Positions 4,641 through 14,072 of a stretch of DNA of 14,072 nt are shown piece by piece. Under the pieces are notes generated by a model. It ran no database searches, was not told where the DNA came from, and saw nothing but the letters and a program-made list of their open reading frames with translations. Numbering within the stretch: the first letter of the stretch is position 1; each line of letters opens with the position of its first letter. The translations under genes and the position numbers were made by a program. The DNA comes from Myxococcota bacterium (lineage in GTDB: Bacteria; Myxococcota_A; UBA796; CAJQPC01): positions 1 to 14,072 of the forward strand of contig DASCPX010000001.1 in assembly GCA_036012755.1 (NCBI GenBank). Direction: 5' to 3'.

Positions 4641-6653
4641 ATGCTTGCGCTCCTCCTCGTGACCGCCTGCTCGAAAGAGCAGAACTTCTACACGACCTCC
4701 CCTGATCCGGTCGGCGGCTCGGACTCTGCTACCCCCGACGGCACCGACGCAGACGGCGACGGCTACGACGAGGACATCGACTGCGACGACAGCGACGCGG
4801 ACGTCCACCCCGACGCGACAGAGGTCTGCAACGGCATCGACGACGACTGTGACGAGCTCGTCGACGACGACGACGACAGCGTCGACCTGGCCACGACGAC
4901 CTACTGGTACGAGGACTTCGACCTCGACGGCTACGGCGATCCGGACACCATCGCCGAGTCCTGCAGCGCCCCCAGCGTGGACCACATCCTCGTCGGCGGC
5001 GACTGCGACGACAGCGACGGGATGATCAACCCCGACGCGACAGAGGTCTGCAACGAGGTGGACGACGACTGCGACCTGCTCATCGACGACGACGACGATG
5101 ACGTCGATCCGGCGACCCAGATCCCATGGTTCGCCGACCTCGACGGCGACGGCTACGGCGACCCCAACGACTTCGAGTTCGCCTGCGTCCAGATCGATGG
5201 CCGCGTCGAAGACGACAACGACTGCGACGACGGCTCCAAGGGCGTGAACCCGGGGCAGAGAGAGGAGTGCAACGACCTCGACGACGACTGCGACGGGTAC
5301 ATCGACGACGACGACGCCAGCTTGGACCTCGAGACCGCCAACTGGTACTGGGAAGACGCCGACGGCGACGGCTACGGCAACGAGGACAAATCCCAGCAGG
5401 CCTGCGACAAGCCCGACGGGTGGAAGTCCAACAAGAAGGACTGCGACGACACGGACGCGGACATCAACCCGGACGCCGCCGAGATCTGCGACGGCGAGGA
5501 CAACGACTGCGACTCGGCCACGCCGGAAGACGGCACGGCCAGCGTCGGCAGCGCCTCCTACGGCACCATCCAGGCAGCCGTGGACGCTGCCTCTTCGGGA
5601 GACACCGTCACCATCTGCGACGGCACCTTCTACGAGAACATCGACACCAGCGTGTCGCTGACCCTGGAGTCCCTCAACGGCTCCGGCAGCGTGACCCTCG
5701 ACGGACGCAGCAAGGGCGCGGTCGTCACCGCCGGCGCTCAGTTGACCGTCAGCGGCTTCACGATCCAGAACGGCAGCGGCCCGCTAGGCGGCGGCATCGA
5801 CGGCTGGACCAACGACGCGGGCACCCTGACCATCGAAGACTGCACGTTCACCGACAACAGCGCCACCTACGGGGGCGGCGTGCTCGGTCCACCCAGCTAC
5901 GATCTCGACGTCAGCGACAGCGAGTTCAAGAACGGGGACGTCACGAACTCCGGAGGCGGCGTCTACATCACCTCCGGCAGCCTCTCGAACGTCACCGTCC
6001 ACGACAACGAGGCGGACTACGGCGGCGGTGTCTTCGTCGACTACGGCGGCAGCGCGACCTTCGACTCCTCCACCGACATCTACGACAACGACGCTACCTA
6101 CGGCGGCGGCGTCTTCCTCTACGGCGCCACCCTCGACGGCGACGACGCGACGATCCGCGACAACGACGCTGACGACGGCGGCGGCGTGTTCATGACGGAC
6201 TCGAACAACTCCCTGTCCAACGCGACGGTCTCCGGGAACACAGCCGACTACGGCGCGGGCCTCTTGTCCGAGAACTACAGCGGCCAGTTCGTCGACACCG
6301 TGGACTTCAGCAGCAACGTCGGCAGCTACGGCGGCGCGGTGTACGTCTACGGCGGCTCGATGGAGATCGAAAACAGCACGCTCGACGCGAACACGGCCAG
6401 CTATGGCGGCGGCATCCTGCTCATCCTCGACGGCACCCTGACGGTGGACGCCTGCACCCTGACGAACAACGGCGCGACCGGGGGCGGAGACGGCGGCGGA
6501 CTGCTGATCTACAAGGGCGACCTGTGGTCCTACTCCACCGACTGGGGCAGCGGGACCAGCGACAACACCCCAGAGGACATCTACTCCTGGGTGACCGACA
6601 GCGCGAGCAGCGGCACGAGCACCGCCTTTTCCTGCGACGAGAGCGGATGCTGA
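4641..6653 (+). CDS. Surface lipoprotein with four MopE-related (putative metal-binding) repeats and a C-terminal right-handed beta-helix domain, 670 aa
   Basis: Lipobox-like 'VTAC'. Four repeats of D.DGDGY...DCDD....NP...E.C...D.DCD. These are followed by 'YGTIQAAVDAASSGDTVTICDGTFYENI' and repeated 'N.A.YGGG' beta-helix motifs. Confidence 0.88.
   Translation: MLALLLVTACSKEQNFYTTSPDPVGGSDSATPDGTDADGDGYDEDIDCDDSDADVHPDATEVCNGIDDDCDELVDDDDDSVDLATTTYWYEDFDLDGYGDPDTIAESCSAPSVDHILVGGDCDDSDGMINPDATEVCNEVDDDCDLLIDDDDDDVDPATQIPWFADLDGDGYGDPNDFEFACVQIDGRVEDDNDCDDGSKGVNPGQREECNDLDDDCDGYIDDDDASLDLETANWYWEDADGDGYGNEDKSQQACDKPDGWKSNKKDCDDTDADINPDAAEICDGEDNDCDSATPEDGTASVGSASYGTIQAAVDAASSGDTVTICDGTFYENIDTSVSLTLESLNGSGSVTLDGRSKGAVVTAGAQLTVSGFTIQNGSGPLGGGIDGWTNDAGTLTIEDCTFTDNSATYGGGVLGPPSYDLDVSDSEFKNGDVTNSGGGVYITSGSLSNVTVHDNEADYGGGVFVDYGGSATFDSSTDIYDNDATYGGGVFLYGATLDGDDATIRDNDADDGGGVFMTDSNNSLSNATVSGNTADYGAGLLSENYSGQFVDTVDFSSNVGSYGGAVYVYGGSMEIENSTLDANTASYGGGILLILDGTLTVDACTLTNNGATGGGDGGGLLIYKGDLWSYSTDWGSGTSDNTPEDIYSWVTDSASSGTSTAFSCDESGC
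4746..5513 (+). repeat. Four intragenic Asp/Cys-rich MopE-like coding repeats (boundaries approximate)
   Basis: Recurring DCDD / NPDATEVCN / DDDCD blocks. The DNA 'cccgacgcgacagaggtctgcaacg' occurs twice, near 4809 and 5032. Confidence 0.85.
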
Positions 6654-6757: not shown

Positions 6758-7777
6758 ATGCTCATCTTCGGACTCATCGCTTGCGGCGGCCCGGTCGCGT
6801 TCCAGGACGACATCGACGACCGCTTGGACATCTTCGGGCCCCGGAACGACGATCTGTCCACGCCATACGTCGAGACCGCCGCCTTCGAGATGAGCATCGT
6901 GCCTCGGCGGGACAAGGACATCACGGGCTGGACGCTGTCCTCCTCCGATCCCACCGTGCTCGAGCTCGGTGAGCTCGAAGCGGACGACTCCGGTCTCTCC
7001 GCCCAGGCGCACGCGCTCTCCACGGGGGAGGTCGAGCTCCAGGCCTTCGACGAGACCGGCAAGCTCCGCGCAACCGAGCTCGTCGAGGTCCGCAGACCCA
7101 CCCGACTCGAGGTCGAGCACGTCGCCCCGCTGCTGCTCGGAGACCCCGACGTCCTCGGCGAGGAGGTCCCGCAGCTGCTCGTCGGCGGCAGCGCCACGAT
7201 GCTGGTCGAGTACTTCGACGAGGACGGCCAGCTGCACGGCCAGGCCGAGGGACTCACCCTCGACGCCCACCCGATGCTGAACCCGACGACGCTGCAGCGG
7301 GACTACGAGGAGAACGTCGACTTCATCCAGATCAGCCCGGAGCTCGCCGGCGACTTCAGCTTCACCGTGAGCATGGGCGACGTGGAGAGGGAGATCGAGG
7401 TCGTCGGCGTGACCATCGACGCGCTGGACCACCTCGCCATCGCGCGCACCGACGAGGAAGAGGACGGCGGCAACCAGGTGGTAGTGGTCCTTGGCGAGGA
7501 CAGCACCGATCGGCCAATCCTCGGGGTCGAGCCCGGCTGGAGGATCAACGGCCAGCTGCGAGAGGAGACAGGAGACGTCTGGGTCTACCAGCTCGAAAAG
7601 GGGGTAGAGAGCCAGGCCATCGCCTCCTTCGACAGACACCAGGTCGGCTTCGACTTCCAGAGCAGCGACGGCGCCGTCCACAGCACGAACACCCCGGGCT
7701 GCAGCGCCACCGGCCTGGGGGCCTCGGCCCTGCTGGCCATGGCCGGCCTCGTCGTCATTCGAAGGCGCTCCACATGA
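6758..7777 (+). CDS. MYXO-CTERM-sorted surface protein (paralog 1), probably Ig-like beta-sandwich domains
   Basis: AGGAG RBS; N-terminus 'MLIFGLIAC'; C-terminus 'PGCSATGLGASALLAMAGLVVIRRRST' (GC motif, TM helix, Arg cluster); 'WTLSSSDPTVL' is Big_2-like. Confidence 0.82.
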   Translation: MLIFGLIACGGPVAFQDDIDDRLDIFGPRNDDLSTPYVETAAFEMSIVPRRDKDITGWTLSSSDPTVLELGELEADDSGLSAQAHALSTGEVELQAFDETGKLRATELVEVRRPTRLEVEHVAPLLLGDPDVLGEEVPQLLVGGSATMLVEYFDEDGQLHGQAEGLTLDAHPMLNPTTLQRDYEENVDFIQISPELAGDFSFTVSMGDVEREIEVVGVTIDALDHLAIARTDEEEDGGNQVVVVLGEDSTDRPILGVEPGWRINGQLREETGDVWVYQLEKGVESQAIASFDRHQVGFDFQSSDGAVHSTNTPGCSATGLGASALLAMAGLVVIRRRST

Positions 7778-8799
7778 TCGTCTTCGGCTTCACCGCCTGC
7801 CTGTCCGGTCACGTCTCCTTCGAAGACGACCTCGACGTCCGAGTCGACCTCGCGGCGACCGAGAGCGACCGGCTCCACACCCCCTACGTTCGAGGTGCGG
7901 CCTTCGACATCACAGCTCGGCGCGACGGCGTCGTGGACCTCTCGGACTGGCAGCTGGTCAGCTCGAACGAGCTGGTCCTCGACGTCGTCGACCTCCGAGC
8001 AGGCGAGGACTCCCTGACCGCCAGCGTAGAGGCCATCGGCGAGGGCGAGGCCCGCATCGAGCTCCTCGGCGCCAGCGGCGACCTCGTCGATGCCCGCGTC
8101 CTCGAGGTGGCCTTCCCCGAGTCCGTCTCGCTGCGTCACGAGAACGCCCTGCGGCTCGGCGTCGAGAGCGACGACGAGTTCGCCCTCGCCTGGGACGGCC
8201 AGGGCCGCTACCTCGCGACCTACATCGACGACCAGGGCCGCGAGCTCTCGGGCCACGGCGTGCTCTCGGCCGGGGATCTCGCCCCACTGCTCGAGGTGGA
8301 CGTCGACGACTTCGCCTGGGGCGAGGACCGGGACTGGGTGACCCTGACCAGCGGCTGGTACGAAGGCGCGGCCGATGTGGAGCTCTACGTCGACGGCGAG
8401 CTCGCCGACGAGCTCTACGTCGAAGTGGTCGGGCCCGCCGACGTCGAGGAGATCGAGGTCATCACCTCCGACGAGGGCGCCGCGACGGAAGGCCAGGATC
8501 TGCTCGCCTGGACCCTCGGCTTCACGATGGACGGGCGCGAGGTCCACGGTGTCGACGCGACCTGGGACGCTGGTGGCCTGGCGCTCCGGGTGGGTGACAC
8601 GGTCGAGTACGTCTTCGACCCCACCGAGCCGACGGACCTCGTCGCCCACTTCGGAGAGAGCGAGGACCGGGCGCTCATCCACGGCAGCGAGTTCCCGGGG
8701 GCGCGGCCTCCCGGCGGCTGCTCGGCGACGGGCCTCGGCGCCACTGGAGCCCTGGCCTTTTTGGGTCTGCTGGTCCTGAGGCGACAGCGACGGGGTTAG
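7774..8799 (+). CDS. MYXO-CTERM-sorted surface protein (paralog 2)
   Basis: ATGA overlap with paralog 1; N-terminus 'MIVFGFTAC'; C-terminus 'GGCSATGLGATGALAFLGLLVLRRQRRG'. Colinear similarity to paralog 1 (L.TPYV..AAF, W.L.SS...VL, Y.D..G). Confidence 0.82.
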   Translation: MIVFGFTACLSGHVSFEDDLDVRVDLAATESDRLHTPYVRGAAFDITARRDGVVDLSDWQLVSSNELVLDVVDLRAGEDSLTASVEAIGEGEARIELLGASGDLVDARVLEVAFPESVSLRHENALRLGVESDDEFALAWDGQGRYLATYIDDQGRELSGHGVLSAGDLAPLLEVDVDDFAWGEDRDWVTLTSGWYEGAADVELYVDGELADELYVEVVGPADVEEIEVITSDEGAATEGQDLLAWTLGFTMDGREVHGVDATWDAGGLALRVGDTVEYVFDPTEPTDLVAHFGESEDRALIHGSEFPGARPPGGCSATGLGATGALAFLGLLVLRRQRRG

Positions 8800-8808
8800 G
8801 CTCGGGCC

Positions 8809-9870
8809 GTGGCCGTCCCGACCGAACTGATCCGAGACCTGCCGCTGTTTCGCATGGTTCCAGCCCACCACCTGGACCAGGCGGCGGAGCTGGCGATGAT
8901 CTCCGTCGAGGTCGGCGAGGGTGAGCTGCTCCTGGCGGAGGGAGAGCGGGACGACTCGTTGATGGTCGTGCTGCAAGGCGAGCTGGAGATCATCAAGGGG
9001 GATCCCTCGGTGCGCATCGCCCGGGTGGGCCGCGGCGAGATCCTCGGCGACATGGCCCTGTTCGGGGGCAGCGGTGTCCGCACGGCGACGGTGCGGACCC
9101 TGTGTCCCAGCTCCTTCGTGCTGATGGAGCAGACCGGCCTCGCGATCCTGCGCGCGCACGGCAACCAGCTCGTGACGGTGCTGGAGTCGACGGCGCTCCG
9201 GACCCTGGGTCGCCGCCTGCGAGACATGAACGACCGCATCTCGGAGATGGCGGTGGGGACCGAGCTGGCGCCAGAGGAACCCTCTGGGCTCCTCGCCCGC
9301 CTGCGCTCCCTGTTCGCGTCGGCCGACCAGGGACCCAAGGGACCTGCCCCCAACCCGGCGTCCGTGCTCGCGAACAGCTCCAGCTTCGACATCCTGCCTG
9401 CCGACAGCCGCGACGCCCTCGCCGACGAGCTGGAGGTCCTCTCGATCCCGGCTGGCACGGTCCTGCTGCAAGAGGGCGAAGTGGGCGACGACGCCTACGT
9501 GGTCGCAGCCGGGCGCGTCGACGTCTACCGAGCGACGCGCACCTTCGAGAACAAGAAGCTGGCCGAGTTCGGGCCGGGCTCTGTGTTCGGGCTGGTCTCG
9601 CTGGTCCACGGCAACGTGCGCTCCGCGACCTGCTATGCGCCCGTCGGGAGCTGGCTGCTCAAGCTGCCAGGCAGCGTCTACCGCGAGCTCGAGGGCACGA
9701 ACTCGATCGAGGCCCAGGCCATGCGAGGCGTCGTCTACCAGTCCCTGGCCCGTCAGCTCGCCGGCGCCAACGAACACGTCGCCCTGCTGATCGCGGCGCT
9801 CGCCCGGGACCCGACCATCACCGAGCGCGAGCGTGCCGCCTACCGGGCCCTGGTCGTCGACTCGATCTGA
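8809..9870 (+). CDS. Protein with two tandem cyclic-nucleotide-binding (CAP_ED) domains and no visible effector domain
   Basis: Domain 1 'LLAEGERDDSLMVVLQGELEI...GEILGDMALFGGSGVRTATV'. Domain 2 'LLQEGEVGDDAYVVAAGRVDV...GSVFGLVSLVHGNVRSATC'. No C-terminal HTH. GTG start. Confidence 0.88.
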   Translation: MAVPTELIRDLPLFRMVPAHHLDQAAELAMISVEVGEGELLLAEGERDDSLMVVLQGELEIIKGDPSVRIARVGRGEILGDMALFGGSGVRTATVRTLCPSSFVLMEQTGLAILRAHGNQLVTVLESTALRTLGRRLRDMNDRISEMAVGTELAPEEPSGLLARLRSLFASADQGPKGPAPNPASVLANSSSFDILPADSRDALADELEVLSIPAGTVLLQEGEVGDDAYVVAAGRVDVYRATRTFENKKLAEFGPGSVFGLVSLVHGNVRSATCYAPVGSWLLKLPGSVYRELEGTNSIEAQAMRGVVYQSLARQLAGANEHVALLIAALARDPTITERERAAYRALVVDSI

Positions 9871-9924
9871 GCGCACCGGCGACCGCGGCGCGATAGCTTC
9901 GTCGCCCCCTTTGCAAGGGATCAC

Positions 9925-11241
9925 ATGCTCCTGCTCTACGCCATGAACGCACACGCCGTGAACCTGTCCATCCCCCACGAGCAGTACCAGCTCGACAACG
10001 GCCTCAACGTCGTCCTCGTCGAGGATCACAGCCTCCCGCAGGTGGTGATCAACCTCTGGTACGGCGTCGGGAGCAAGGACGAGGCGTCCGGTCGCACGGG
10101 CTTCGCCCACCTCTTCGAGCACCTCATGTTCATGGGCACCACCCGCCTGCCGGACAGCGGCTTCGACGACCTCATGGAGGGGCAGGGCGGCTGGAACAAC
10201 GCCTGGACCAGCGAAGACGCCACCGACTACTACGAGGTCGGCCCCTCCAGCCTCGTCGAGCTCTTCCTCTGGATGGAGGCGGACCGCATGGATGGCCTCG
10301 CCGGCGCGATGACGCAGGACAAGCTCGACCTCCAGCGCGAGGTCGTGCGCAACGAGCGGCGCCAGTCCTACGAGAACGCACCCTACGGCCAGGTCGGGCT
10401 GGACATGCCGGCGGCGCTCTACCCAGAGGGGCACCCCTACGCCCACACGGTCATCGGCAGCCACGAAGACCTCGAGGCCGCCACCCTGGCCGACGTCGTC
10501 GGCTTCTTCGACACCTGGTACGTGCCAAACAACGCCTCCCTGGTCGTCGCGGGGGACATCGACGTCGACAAGACGAAGGCCGACATCGAGCGCCTCTTCG
10601 GCGGCCTCGAGATGGGCCCCCTGCCAGCGCTCGAGATGGTCGCCACTCCCCTGAAGCCCGTGCAGCCCCTGGTGGAGATCACCGACGAGAGCATCGAGAC
10701 GCCCCTGACGATGACCGTCTGGCACAGCGCGGCCGCCCTCCAGCCAGGAGACGCCGAGCTGGACGTCGTGAGCGCCATCCTCTCCAGTGGGCGCAGCTCG
10801 CGCCTGTATCGACGACTGGTCGACACGGGCGTGGCGCTGGAGGTCCACGCCTGGCAATACAGCCAGCTCCTGTCTTCGATCTTCGGCATCGAGGCCAAGC
10901 CGGCGGAGGGCCACACCGTCGAGGAGATCGAGGCCATCGTCTACGAAGAGCTCGCCCGGCTCGCAGAAAAGGGGCCGACCGATGCGGAGCTCGAGCGTGT
11001 CGTCAACGCCTACGAGATGCGCTTCATCCGGAACCTGGAGTCGCTCCAGGCTCGGGCCAGCGCGCTGAACCGCTACCACTACCTCGTGGGCGAGCCCGAC
11101 TACCTCGAGAAAGACCTCGCCCGCTACAGGGCCGTGGACGCCGAAGCGGTCCAGGGAGCCGCCCGTCAGCTCACGGCTGAGCGGGCAGCGACCTTCCATG
11201 TCTTCCCTCCGGCTCCCGAGCCCACGGAGGAGACCGACTGA
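9925..11241 (+). CDS. M16B family zinc metallopeptidase, catalytic subunit
   Basis: 'LDNGLNVVL', 'WYGVGSKDE..GRTGFAHLFEHLMFMGT' (inverted zinc motif HxxEH), 'NAWTS.DATDY', 'VVRNERRQ', 'HPYAHTVIGS' and 'WYVPNNASLVVAGD'. Confidence 0.96.
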   Translation: MLLLYAMNAHAVNLSIPHEQYQLDNGLNVVLVEDHSLPQVVINLWYGVGSKDEASGRTGFAHLFEHLMFMGTTRLPDSGFDDLMEGQGGWNNAWTSEDATDYYEVGPSSLVELFLWMEADRMDGLAGAMTQDKLDLQREVVRNERRQSYENAPYGQVGLDMPAALYPEGHPYAHTVIGSHEDLEAATLADVVGFFDTWYVPNNASLVVAGDIDVDKTKADIERLFGGLEMGPLPALEMVATPLKPVQPLVEITDESIETPLTMTVWHSAAALQPGDAELDVVSAILSSGRSSRLYRRLVDTGVALEVHAWQYSQLLSSIFGIEAKPAEGHTVEEIEAIVYEELARLAEKGPTDAELERVVNAYEMRFIRNLESLQARASALNRYHYLVGEPDYLEKDLARYRAVDAEAVQGAARQLTAERAATFHVFPPAPEPTEETD

Positions 11242-12654: not shown

Positions 12655-13482
12655 TCATAGTGGAGACCTGATCTGCATCCGCCCGGGATCCCGGAGGTGG
12701 ATGTAGCGCATGGTCGTGCGCAGGTCTGCGTGGCCGAGCAACACCTGTATGACGGCGAGGTCCGAGCCTTGTTCGAGCAGATGCGTGGCGAAGGCGTGTC
12801 GCAGCGAGTGCGGCGTCACTTTGCCCTCTACGCCCCCGGCCGCGGCTGCCCTGCCCACGACCTTCTGGATGGACCGAGCCGTGAGCGCCCCGCCTGCATT
12901 TGACGGGATCACCGGCGACTCCGGGTGTCTTCCGTGGGTTTGCTCCCGGAGCGTGTCCGTCAGCATCGGACTGAGCAGTGCGACCCTCTCTTTGCGTCCT
13001 TTGCCTCTCCGGATCCGCAGCTGGAGCCGACTCAGGTCGACATCGCCGACCCGCAGCCCGACGAGCTCACTCACGCGCATGCCACTTGCGTAGAGCAGCA
13101 GGATCACGAGCCGGTGCTTGTCGTTGGTGGTGACCGCAGCCATCGCGAGCACCTCCTCACGGGTAGGGACTCGCGGAAGAAACACCCCCCGCTTCGGCCG
13201 CGGCACCACGAACATCTCCGCCGAGCGCCCGTAGAGCTCGTGGAAGAGCAGCTTCAGCGCGGAGACCACCTGGTTGACGTAGGCCCGGCTCCTGTCCGCC
13301 TCCAGCAGTCCGAGCAGGTAGCTCCGCACCTGCCCGTCAGTGGCGTCACGCGGCACCACCGGATCAATGTGGGCCACGAACCCGCGAAGGCAAGACAGGT
13401 ACGCCTTGATGGTGGTCCGCGCATACCCACGCAGCACCATCTCCTGCTGGTACCGCTCATACAGATCCTGCGAAAGCCCCAC
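12655..13482 (-). CDS. Tyrosine recombinase, integron-integrase-like (N-terminal SAM-like domain, C-terminal SPL), apparently without the IntI-specific insertion; 275 aa
   Basis: Intact catalytic set: R (GMRVSE), K (GKGRKER), HxxR (HSLRH), H (LLGH) and Y (TTMRYIH). N-terminus 'LRGYARTTIKAY...NQVVSALKLLF', then 'LPRVPTREEV', ending 'IRSPL'. The start is placed at GTG 13482 with GGAGG 5 nt upstream, whereas the track starts at 13557. Confidence 0.92.
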   Translation of the reverse strand: MGLSQDLYERYQQEMVLRGYARTTIKAYLSCLRGFVAHIDPVVPRDATDGQVRSYLLGLLEADRSRAYVNQVVSALKLLFHELYGRSAEMFVVPRPKRGVFLPRVPTREEVLAMAAVTTNDKHRLVILLLYASGMRVSELVGLRVGDVDLSRLQLRIRRGKGRKERVALLSPMLTDTLREQTHGRHPESPVIPSNAGGALTARSIQKVVGRAAAAGGVEGKVTPHSLRHAFATHLLEQGSDLAVIQVLLGHADLRTTMRYIHLRDPGRMQIRSPL

Positions 13483-13535
13483 CTCGCCCTCCTCTGCCTC
13501 CGTATCCGCGAGGGGGACCAGAAACTGTCCGGGGG

Positions 13536-13564
13536 ATCGCAGAAGTAGCCCTCTCAAGCATCAA
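13536..13564 (-). promoter_or_regulatory. Possible sigma-70 promoter for the recombinase
   Basis: Minus strand TTGATG-N17-TGCGAT, 53 nt upstream of the GTG. The -10 match is poor. Confidence 0.25.
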
Positions 13565-13566
13565 TG

Positions 13567-13597
13567 CGACACCGGTGTCGGTAGTCAGGCGTTAGGC
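13567..13597 (+). other. Candidate attI-like recombination site: perfect 14-bp palindrome plus GTTRRRY core
   Basis: CGACACCGGTGTCG (13567-13580) is followed 10 nt later by GTTAGGC (13591-13597). It lies about 110 bp upstream of the recombinase start, on the strand where integron attI cores lie. Confidence 0.55.
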
Positions 13598-13622
13598 GAC
13601 ATTGACGAGTGCTTTTAGCCCT

Positions 13623-14072
13623 TTAGTCGTATCGCTCCCGAAGTTGGGACCCTTCGAGTAGTGCCATGAGTTCTGCGCTGCCCTTGAGTGCGTCCGGGGA
13701 GACCATCGTTTCATTGAACTGGCGCCAGATGAGCGCTTCGACGACGGTCGCTTGGAACTTCCACCCTCGGGTGACACCGTACGCTCGGACGCGGGGATCG
13801 TCTGCGTCCTTCCAACGCTCGAACAACCGGGAGAGTGCCTTGTCTCTCTCGTGTTTCTGGAGCCAGTGTGACGTTGCTTCCGGCCCCGCCTCACGGAGGA
13901 CCAGATAGGCGGCGAGCTTGATGAGGGCGTCGCCGAGCTGAGCCTCGGACCAGAGCGCCTGGTCGTCAGACGCGATTTCGATGGCCGCCAGTGCCTCTGC
14001 AGCGGCGTTGCCGTCCGCCTCCGAGATGCGCTGACCTTCCCCACGGCCTGTCAGTACGTGCCCGTCGGGTAG
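13623..14072 (-). CDS. 5'-truncated gene: dsRBD-like segment followed by a Mini-III/RNase III-like domain
   Basis: My manual translation shows the frame of track ORF 13623..13826 open to the window end (149 codons): LPDGHVLTGRGEGQRISEADGNAAAEALAAI (dsRBD beta3-alpha2-like), EAQLGDALIKL (13914-13946; cf. LEFLGD/LAYLGDA) and KFQATVVEALIW (13725-13760; cf. ADxxEALIG/TAFEAL). Confidence 0.65.
   Translation of the reverse strand, partial: LPDGHVLTGRGEGQRISEADGNAAAEALAAIEIASDDQALWSEAQLGDALIKLAAYLVLREAGPEATSHWLQKHERDKALSRLFERWKDADDPRVRAYGVTRGWKFQATVVEALIWRQFNETMVSPDALKGSAELMALLEGSQLRERYD

Follow-up and report, generated by a model that had tools for sequence, protein, structure and literature searches.

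Introduction

Four classes of RNase III enzyme are distinguished according to the parts found alongside the catalytic domain (PMC4357697 and PMC5141509, both in excerpt). The Aquifex enzyme binds two Mg2+ ions through E40, D44, D107 and E110, with E110 being essential (PMC3867540, in excerpt), and Mini-III, a class that includes 1u61 and 2gsl (PMC4357697), works as an active homodimer that is inactivated by E106Q in BsMiniIII (PMC5141509, in excerpt). Here we examine a gene cut by the end of the Myxococcota contig DASCPX010000001.1, referred to below as the window, meaning the whole stretch of DNA analysed; its 14,072 bases are the entire contig, which comes from a 6.7-Mb assembly with 68% G+C. 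The gene is predicted to encode a double-stranded RNA-binding domain (dsRBD) followed by an RNase III-like domain, and a bacterial protein with a single dsRBD ahead of a single minimal RNase III domain fits none of the four classes. The openly accessible full-text literature searched yielded no description of a bacterial protein whose dsRBD precedes an RNase III domain.

On balance, we think that the 191-residue gene product belongs to the RNase III superfamily with its domain order reversed and is predicted to be a nuclease with two metal-binding residues, and that the gene travels as accessory cassette cargo with a probable role in conflict. At the level of fold and motif, the domain-permuted reading is well supported. 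Dimerisation and catalysis are likely, and metal binding and the substrate are inferred. The cassette context, together with the patchy spread of the family, makes a role as toxin or in defence plausible.

Results and Discussion

Recovery of the complete gene

On the minus strand, an uninterrupted frame of 149 residues runs from the contig end at 14072 to a TAA stop at 13623-13625, leaving the first 42 codons of the 191-codon gene beyond the contig end. A first-pass annotation made from the sequence alone had described this frame as carrying a dsRBD-like string followed by LGDAL and ATVVEALI, and translation agrees: the window reads GRGEGQRISEADGNAAAEALAAI, LGDAL and ATVVEALI, and the Asp and Glu of the latter two motifs are 64 residues apart. 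The "67 aa" displayed in its track corresponds to a TTG-started sub-ORF (open reading frame) at 13623-13826. Its dsRBD-like half does belong to a dsRBD, but the window holds only about the last 30 residues of that domain (43-72 of 191). The features of the gene within the window are as follows.

13623..14072, minus strand: 149 final codons and stop of the 191-codon gene (dsRBD, then RNase III-like domain), cut by the contig end
13983..14072, minus strand: C-terminal part of the predicted dsRBD, residues 43-72 (strand 3, helix 2), from AlphaFold2 (AF2) elements and dsRBD matches
13653..13970, minus strand: predicted RNase III-fold helical domain, residues 77-182, from models, fold searches and profile-profile comparison
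13929..13931, minus strand: Asp90 codon (GDAL motif), aligning with the Aquifex RNase III D44 position through the GDA match found by hhalign
13737..13739, minus strand: Glu154 codon (VEAL motif), aligning by hhalign with the Aquifex E110 / B. subtilis Mini-III E106 position

The 42 missing N-terminal codons were not found elsewhere in the assembly. A 32-base pattern taken from the window retrieved L085, a 50-kb metagenome contig with 100% identity to the window across 8083 aligned bases, and its ORF at L085:493-1068 supplies the full 191 amino acids, with an ATG start, AAGGGGGA ahead of it, and a match to all 149 window residues. A word-indexed protein search returned P0003, a 191-aa protein that is 99% identical, so the complete ORF that the first-pass annotation had proposed to recover is available from both sources. 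When 1.84 billion cluster representatives were scanned exhaustively with HMMER, 73 relatives emerged at E<=0.001, 51 of these at E<=1e-10 and most of them 180-200 aa long. Since the frame has this many relatives it is more than a chance opening, and the observation is confirmed as real.

The N-terminal domain

Fifty-three full-length members of the 73 were aligned, with short and much longer ones excluded, and the AF2 model of the whole protein was built on this alignment (predicted local distance difference test (pLDDT) 93.1, predicted template modelling score (pTM) 0.84). The model begins with the elements H5-15, E25-30, E33-42, E48-55 and H58-71, an alpha-beta-beta-beta-alpha order. Compared with solved proteins, the 53-member profile matched TARBP2 (1e-7), Loquacious (1.2e-7) and the E. 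coli RNase III dsRBD (0.001), and Pfam dsrm (PF00035) was found in 24 of the 53 members with a best value of 8e-9. A structural search of 48,161 chains gave dsRBD fold matches with Z 8-10.2 and a root-mean-square deviation (rmsd) of 2.0-3.2 over 64-75 residues. On profile and model evidence, residues 1-72 are therefore predicted to be a dsRBD, and this domain comes first in all 53 aligned members.

The C-terminal domain has an RNase III-like fold

A linker of five residues separates the dsRBD from residues 77-182, which are modelled as a compact helical domain roughly 105 residues long. Pfam, NCBIfam, PADLOC and PHROG contain no model that recognises this nuclease domain, and neither the window fragment nor the full protein gave a match for it among PDB sequences, Pfam or NCBIfam. 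Among the 50 matches listed for the whole model, the entries that were not dsRBDs were RNase III domains only, namely Giardia Dicer (Z 9.6, rmsd 2.8, 99 residues), C. jejuni Rnc (Z 8.7, rmsd 3.5, 101 residues) and Dcr1 (Z 7.3).

A second model was made for residues 74-191 only, using 34 sequences (naturally short forms together with segments cut from the window and the loci), and reached a pLDDT of 89.1. The best 30 of the 48,161 chains for this model were nearly all of the RNase III fold (Z 8.9-4.7, rmsd 2.5-4.2, 82-107 residues), among them Dicer, Dcr1, RTL4, FN1578, Drosha, the Rnc proteins of four bacteria, and RNase III-like subunits of mitoribosomes and RNA editing; these family labels are in part what we take the entries to be. 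Mini-III was matched through 4oun (Z 7.7) and 2gsl (Z 7.5), the mitoribosomal subunits through 3j6b_5 (Z 7.8) and 3j7y_c (Z 7.2), and the first entries titled as other kinds of protein appeared at Z 4.6. Foldseek with the domain model ranked the same set of proteins first, at E-values of 0.18 and worse.

Profile comparison pointed in the same direction. We cut 19 RNase III nuclease domains, mostly cyanobacterial, from the searched genomes, and hhalign aligned the family's C-terminal domain with this rnc profile over 99 columns at E=2.6e-4. The alignment is collinear, pairing GDAL with GDAV, ESDxxLA with VSDxxLA and VEAL with FEAV, and its score of 29.0 was reached by none of 200 column shuffles (mean 11.9, sd 2.3, max 19.1), with a reversed profile scoring 8.3. 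When the whole-family alignment was compared with the genome's own Rnc, the dsRBDs alone were aligned, as expected because the domains are permuted. Language-model neighbours beyond the protein's own cluster were RNase III clusters at 0.83, which we treat as a lead only. Taken together, the whole-model search, the domain-only search and the profile comparison place the predicted C-terminal domain in the RNase III fold with good support, and the family profile, the fold searches and the hhalign match all bear out the original suggestion of a dsRBD set ahead of an RNase III-type domain.

The putative active site

By motif and hhalign alignment, the equivalent of Aquifex D44 is D90, found in 53 of 53 members, and that of E110 is E154, found in 52. 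The columns A86, G89 and D90 are invariant, and Q87 (49 of 53), K94 (52), E117 (51), E154 (52), A155 (50) and W158 (52) are nearly so. Position 151 is Thr in 41 and Ser in 6 members. Thus, as had been proposed from the window, only two of the four acidic residues are kept, as in Mini-III; the lost positions are Ala and Thr. Of 21 cyanobacterial Mini-III sequences, 20 have Ala at the fourth position ahead of the Asp, and 20 have Thr or Ser at the third position ahead of the Glu. Since active Mini-III shows the same Ala/Thr pattern, the reduced carboxylate site is no argument against catalysis.

The description of the domain as Mini-III-like is partly supported, holding for this reduced motif pattern. 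The distance from Asp to Glu has a mode of 64 in the family, against 79 in all 20 Mini-III sequences measured and 64-82 (mode 72, n=19) in the rnc set, and a Mini-III profile matched at E=0.23 against 2.6e-4 for canonical RNase III. Motifs aside, spacing and profile match thus suggest that the domain is nearer to canonical RNase III than to Mini-III. The longer Mini-III spacing is ascribed to an extra alpha5b helix, and the comparison here is by spacing alone.

As a separate observation on the rnc set, Asp occupies the position three residues before the Glu (Aquifex D107) in only 3 of the 19 canonical-length RNase III domains, and Ser is commonest there (7 of 19); the scan of cyanobacterial rnc loci (L041, L042, L043, L050 and others) was regex-based and may mis-assign some sequences. 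Because Asp is found in so few domains, the carboxylate at the D107 position is not universal in class 1 either.

Several results weigh against the molecular assignment as a whole. For the dsRBD, the protein's own dsrm score is 17 bits against a cut-off of 23, with 64 of 66 profile positions covered; Ile58 replaces the family-consensus region-3 lysine at the N-terminus of the second helix, with Arg57 preceding it; and the 191-aa protein is acidic (isoelectric point (pI) 5.6). For the C-terminal domain, PF00636 and PF14622 gave no match to the protein at E<=10 and are absent from the 25 families listed for the 53 members, Foldseek E-values were all >0.1 with both models and none reached E<=0.001, and by the search tool's own notes a VIA Z of 8-9 is in the range that helical domains can attain by common arrangement. 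The Mini-III profile (21 sequences) was non-significant at E=0.23 though identical in register, and so were thin profiles of 7 rnc and 5 Mini-III sequences (E=0.074 and 0.17). Lastly, two of the four carboxylates are gone, the E40 position being Ala in 53 of 53 members and the D107 position Thr in 41 or Ser in 6. The check by PF00636, PF14622, PF00035 and Foldseek that the first-pass annotation had suggested gave mixed outcomes: dsrm in 24 of 53 members and the fold ranks speak for the two domains, but PF00636 and PF14622 gave no match and Foldseek E-values stayed above 0.1.

The alternative that survives best, though we think it unlikely, is a catalytically inert dsRNA-binding protein in which the RNase III fold serves as a scaffold or dimerisation module; such a protein might titrate dsRNA away, or alter the activity of the host RNase III by pairing with it. 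In its favour, the protein lacks two of the four canonical carboxylates, no RNase III hidden Markov model (HMM) matches, a canonical rnc gene is already present in the genome, and the non-cleaving mitoribosomal subunits 3j6b_5 (Z 7.8) and 3j7y_c (Z 7.2) are among the fold matches. However, D90 (53/53), E154 (52/53), Q87, K94 and E117 are under strong constraint, and Mini-III works with the identical Ala/Thr pattern (PMC5141509, in excerpt). An inert scaffold is disfavoured because its keeping exactly these five residues would be unexpected.

Under our preferred reading of an active enzyme, the dsRBD would hold double-stranded RNA and two copies of the helical domain would pair, as in all RNase III enzymes. 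Each copy would cut one strand with Mg2+ held by Asp90 and Glu154, and the conserved Gln87, Lys94 and Glu117 would assist cleavage.

Distribution of the family

The family is small and patchy in distribution. Named records with relatives are mainly cyanobacterial, and the others are from "Deltaproteobacteria"/Myxococcota metagenome-assembled genomes (MAGs), from Bacteroidota, and from one Gemmataceae and one Halomonas MAG. A full-length match is present in only 1 of 40 related genomes, with one more genome matching the dsRBD part only, and some genomes hold two or three copies on separate contigs. For the five proteins returned by a word-indexed search with the family alignment, the source names were "hypothetical protein" or absent, and the language-model atlas labels the protein's own cluster "dsRNA-binding protein family protein".

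P0007 (274 aa) is a family member with two tandem dsRBDs ahead of the RNase III-like C-terminal domain. In P0004 (219 aa, from a 779-bp contig), family residues 1-94, through GDALI, are fused in frame to a biotin-lipoyl (PF00364) C-terminus, so that it is a chimera of the assembly or else a copy that was rearranged in a related strain. In a genome of the same order, a 220-codon frame (L054, G036:C65:181480-181695) matches only positions 3-76 of the family profile, that is the dsRBD, at E=8.9e-6; judging by this match, it may be another bacterial dsRBD protein of different architecture.

A recombinase-associated cassette

Next to the RNase III-like gene, the window holds a recombinase gene and one arm of an inverted repeat.

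12655..13557, minus strand: tyrosine recombinase gene (Xer/integron-integrase-like), 65 bp downstream of the RNase III-like gene and on the same strand
13590..13612, no strand assigned: recombinase-proximal inverted-repeat arm, 23 nt, containing GTTAGGC; equal to L085:1079-1101, with its partner at L085:97-119, outside the window

The 23-nt arms are complementary at 22 of 23 positions (96%), lie 959 nt apart and in L085 bracket two ORFs, the RNase III-like gene and, 20 bp upstream of it, a 112-codon acidic ORF (L085:135-473, pI 4.6). The cassette is bounded by GTTAGGC ... GCCTAAC, and GTTAGGC fits GTTRRRY, which we take to be the integron core-site consensus. The assembly contains the 22-nt repeat arm a single time and lacks any copy of the sequence to the left of the cassette, no tRNA genes or Rfam families were found in the window, and no flanking inverted repeat of at least 16 nt was found at 33 other family loci. 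The G+C content at third codon positions (GC3) is 0.73 in the RNase III-like gene and 0.81 in the recombinase gene, compared to 0.90-0.92 in the adjacent peptidase genes. The recombinase neighbour, the bracketing repeats and this drop in GC3 agree with the mobile context that had been claimed for the gene, and we regard it as accessory cargo in this genome.

The recombinase matches PF00589 (9.4e-38) and PF13495 (4.5e-11). Its best NCBIfam model is NF040815 (XerA / integron-integrase type) at 192 bits, where the cut-off is 220, and it is below the integron-integrase cut-offs of TIGR02249 (178.9 bits vs 265) and PRK15417 (105 vs 435), with each of these two matches split near residue 207-208. 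As for an attC-like hairpin next to the cassette, folding of the flank L085:20-106 was no more favourable than that of shuffled sequences (z=0.29).

We also placed contigs from four coded marine metagenome runs, belonging to two studies, on L085:1-2100. The word depth of the cassette was about half that of the recombinase side in all four runs, a pattern that is suggestive only because contig depths sum over organisms. Contigs end or diverge at L085:1087-1103, at the repeat arms, and in three of the four runs contigs share only L085:60-111 (or 60-93) with flanks that differ on both sides. Joints expected of inversion or excision of the cassette were absent among the contigs on L085:1-2100, though contigs can miss either. 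In one run, X1, depth was 140 at L085:1-70 and 12 on the recombinase side.

Relatives of the recombinase and an array at L095

Five of the 40 related genomes encode proteins with 49-63% identity to the recombinase, at six loci in all, three of which stop at a contig edge directly upstream of the recombinase gene. At another (L095:473-5816; genome G017, contig C23), the region upstream of a recombinase 49% identical to ours holds four copies of a conserved repeat of about 73 nt, spaced 1139, 1059 and 1215 bp apart. Three copies were folded, and for two of them the structure of lowest energy is a hairpin, imperfect and closed by TAACG/CGTTA; z against shuffles is only -1.1 to -2.0. Each segment between the repeats has its own 17-19-nt inverted ends starting with CGTT, and one segment encodes a Phd/YefM + PIN pair. 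L095 thus looks like an integron-type cassette array with an integrase below integron-integrase cut-offs. An HMM of the four repeats found nothing significant in the window's genome or in L085.

Neighbourhoods and a possible role in conflict

The gene is accessory cargo between inverted repeats and beside a recombinase, and therefore probably has a role in conflict, either as a toxin with an immunity protein or in anti-RNA defence, rather than in rRNA maturation; this is the weakest step of the proposed explanation. A conflict-related role for dsRNA cleavage is likewise indicated by the patchy spread of the family across cyanobacteria, Myxococcota-type MAGs, Bacteroidota and planctomycetes together with the recombinase-associated cassette.

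To examine neighbouring genes, 107 ORFs flanking the gene at 32 loci were compared with Pfam, and their content was mixed. By our own classification, restriction, toxin-antitoxin (TA), helicase-nuclease, integrase or resolvase genes lie within two genes at 15 of 32 loci, and ordinary neighbours such as EF-P, L28 or formyltransferase are found at about half. Some observations count against a conflict role. Neighbour clustering over 33 loci gave no conserved partner, the largest group being an SNF2-type helicase at 4 loci, 3 of them from a single genus; PADLOC gave 0 matches for 7 proteins, and PHROGs a single weak match among 6; and no relative was found in viral contigs, plasmids (two queries) or phages. 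In addition, no relative of the 112-aa ORF was found next to other members of the family or at any other place in the genome.

This 112-aa ORF matches no Pfam family. Its structural neighbours in the atlas include SUKH-4 immunity-type clusters at TM 0.63-0.66, a lead only, and judging by these models it may be an immunity or antitoxin partner. A more specific reading, which we consider doubtful, is that the family is an undescribed RNase III class, with its dsRBD first, a minimal nuclease core and a two-carboxylate site, that provides the toxic or antiviral component of a cassette of two genes; a small acidic immunity-type protein would precede it, in an integron-like array whose recombinase would lack the integron-integrase hallmark. 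If this were true, bacteria would be using dsRNA cleavage as a weapon of conflict carried on cassettes. No conflict role for bacterial RNase III-family proteins is documented in the openly accessible full-text literature searched.

It is improbable that the protein is instead an active RNase III-type enzyme of housekeeping RNA processing (rRNA, tRNA or sRNA), as Mini-III is, whose adjacency to a recombinase is fortuitous. All characterised bacterial RNase III-family enzymes process cellular RNA (PMC3867540, PMC8708148), the metabolic or translation genes named above adjoin about half of the loci, and the PADLOC defence library has no match. Against this, just one of the 40 related genomes has a full-length copy, some genomes carry two or three on separate contigs, neighbours at 15 of 32 loci are of the mobility and conflict types named above, and in this genome the GC3 is foreign-looking and the cassette bracketed by repeats. 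Finally, an unrelated helical bundle, its likeness to RNase III convergent or an artefact of structure prediction, is very improbable: Z 8-9 and Foldseek E>0.1 are individually weak and HMM-to-sequence searches came up empty, but the best 30 of 48,161 chains are nearly all of one fold family with other titles appearing only from Z 4.6, the sequence-only profile comparison beat 200 of 200 shuffles with three motifs collinear, and the language-model neighbours, as a lead only, are RNase III clusters at 0.83.

Other observations in the window

Two further regions of the window are worth recording. The 1204-codon open frame at 7585-11199 on the minus strand has no Pfam match and lies opposite four plus-strand ORFs; it is most likely a high-GC shadow frame rather than a gene. 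Pfam finds cNMP-binding or M16 peptidase domains in three of those four plus-strand ORFs and nothing in the fourth. At 4641-6653 on the plus strand, a 670-aa protein carries four MopE-type metal-binding motifs and a right-handed beta-helix region.

Comparison with known systems

Mini-III is of interest as a sequence-specific dsRNA cutter, and a small relative carrying its own dsRBD could be useful as a reagent. After Mini-III, the family would also offer a second natural test of the minimal number of carboxylates for an RNase III site, and it would reveal the effect of a rigidly attached N-terminal dsRBD on the choice of cleavage site.

The genomic setting recalls an integron cassette or Xer-site module in that the gene adjoins the 5′ end of an IntI/Xer-like recombinase gene and is bounded by GTTAGGC ... 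GCCTAAC. At L095, the locus of the recombinase relative, there are also four hairpin-forming repeats about 1.1 kb apart with Phd-PIN in one segment. It differs in that the recombinase is below the integrase cut-offs with a split match and no attC-like hairpin was demonstrated beside the cassette. Furthermore, unlike in a canonical attC site, the ends of the cassette are complementary over 23 nt, and the genes point at the recombinase.

For the order of the domains, the closest likeness in the literature searched is DrnB, a Dictyostelium Dicer with a dsRBD (residues 9-75) N-terminal to its RNase III part (PMC5056781, in excerpt). DrnB is eukaryotic, however, and probably shares no more with this family than the domain families. 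It is presumably also a long protein with two RNase III domains.

Class 1 Rnc (PF14622/PF00636 + PF00035) has the same two folds, with one RNase III domain and one dsRBD. The GDA, VSDxxLA-like and xEAL motifs are collinear between the two, and the family's Asp-Glu spacing of 64 is within the 64-82 of rnc. In Rnc, however, the nuclease domain is N-terminal and the dsRBD C-terminal, an order that is reversed in the family with a linker of about 5 residues. The nuclease domain also spans about 150 residues in Rnc (PMC3867540, in excerpt) and about 105 in the family, where the E40 position is Ala (53/53) and the D107 position Thr or Ser (47/53), and no Pfam or NCBIfam model recognises the domain in the family.

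Mini-III (class 4; B. subtilis MrnC, 4oun, 1u61, 2gsl) differs in being described without a dsRBD (PMC4357697 and PMC5141509, both in excerpt), whereas the family has one. Its Asp-Glu spacing is 79 (20/20 measured) against 64, its profile matches the family only at E=0.23, and it was found in every sampled cyanobacterial genome that had a short form, unlike the patchy family. What the two share is the Ala four residues before the Asp, the Thr three residues before the Glu, a small size, and a fold similar enough to be matched in 4oun (Z 7.7) and 2gsl (Z 7.5).

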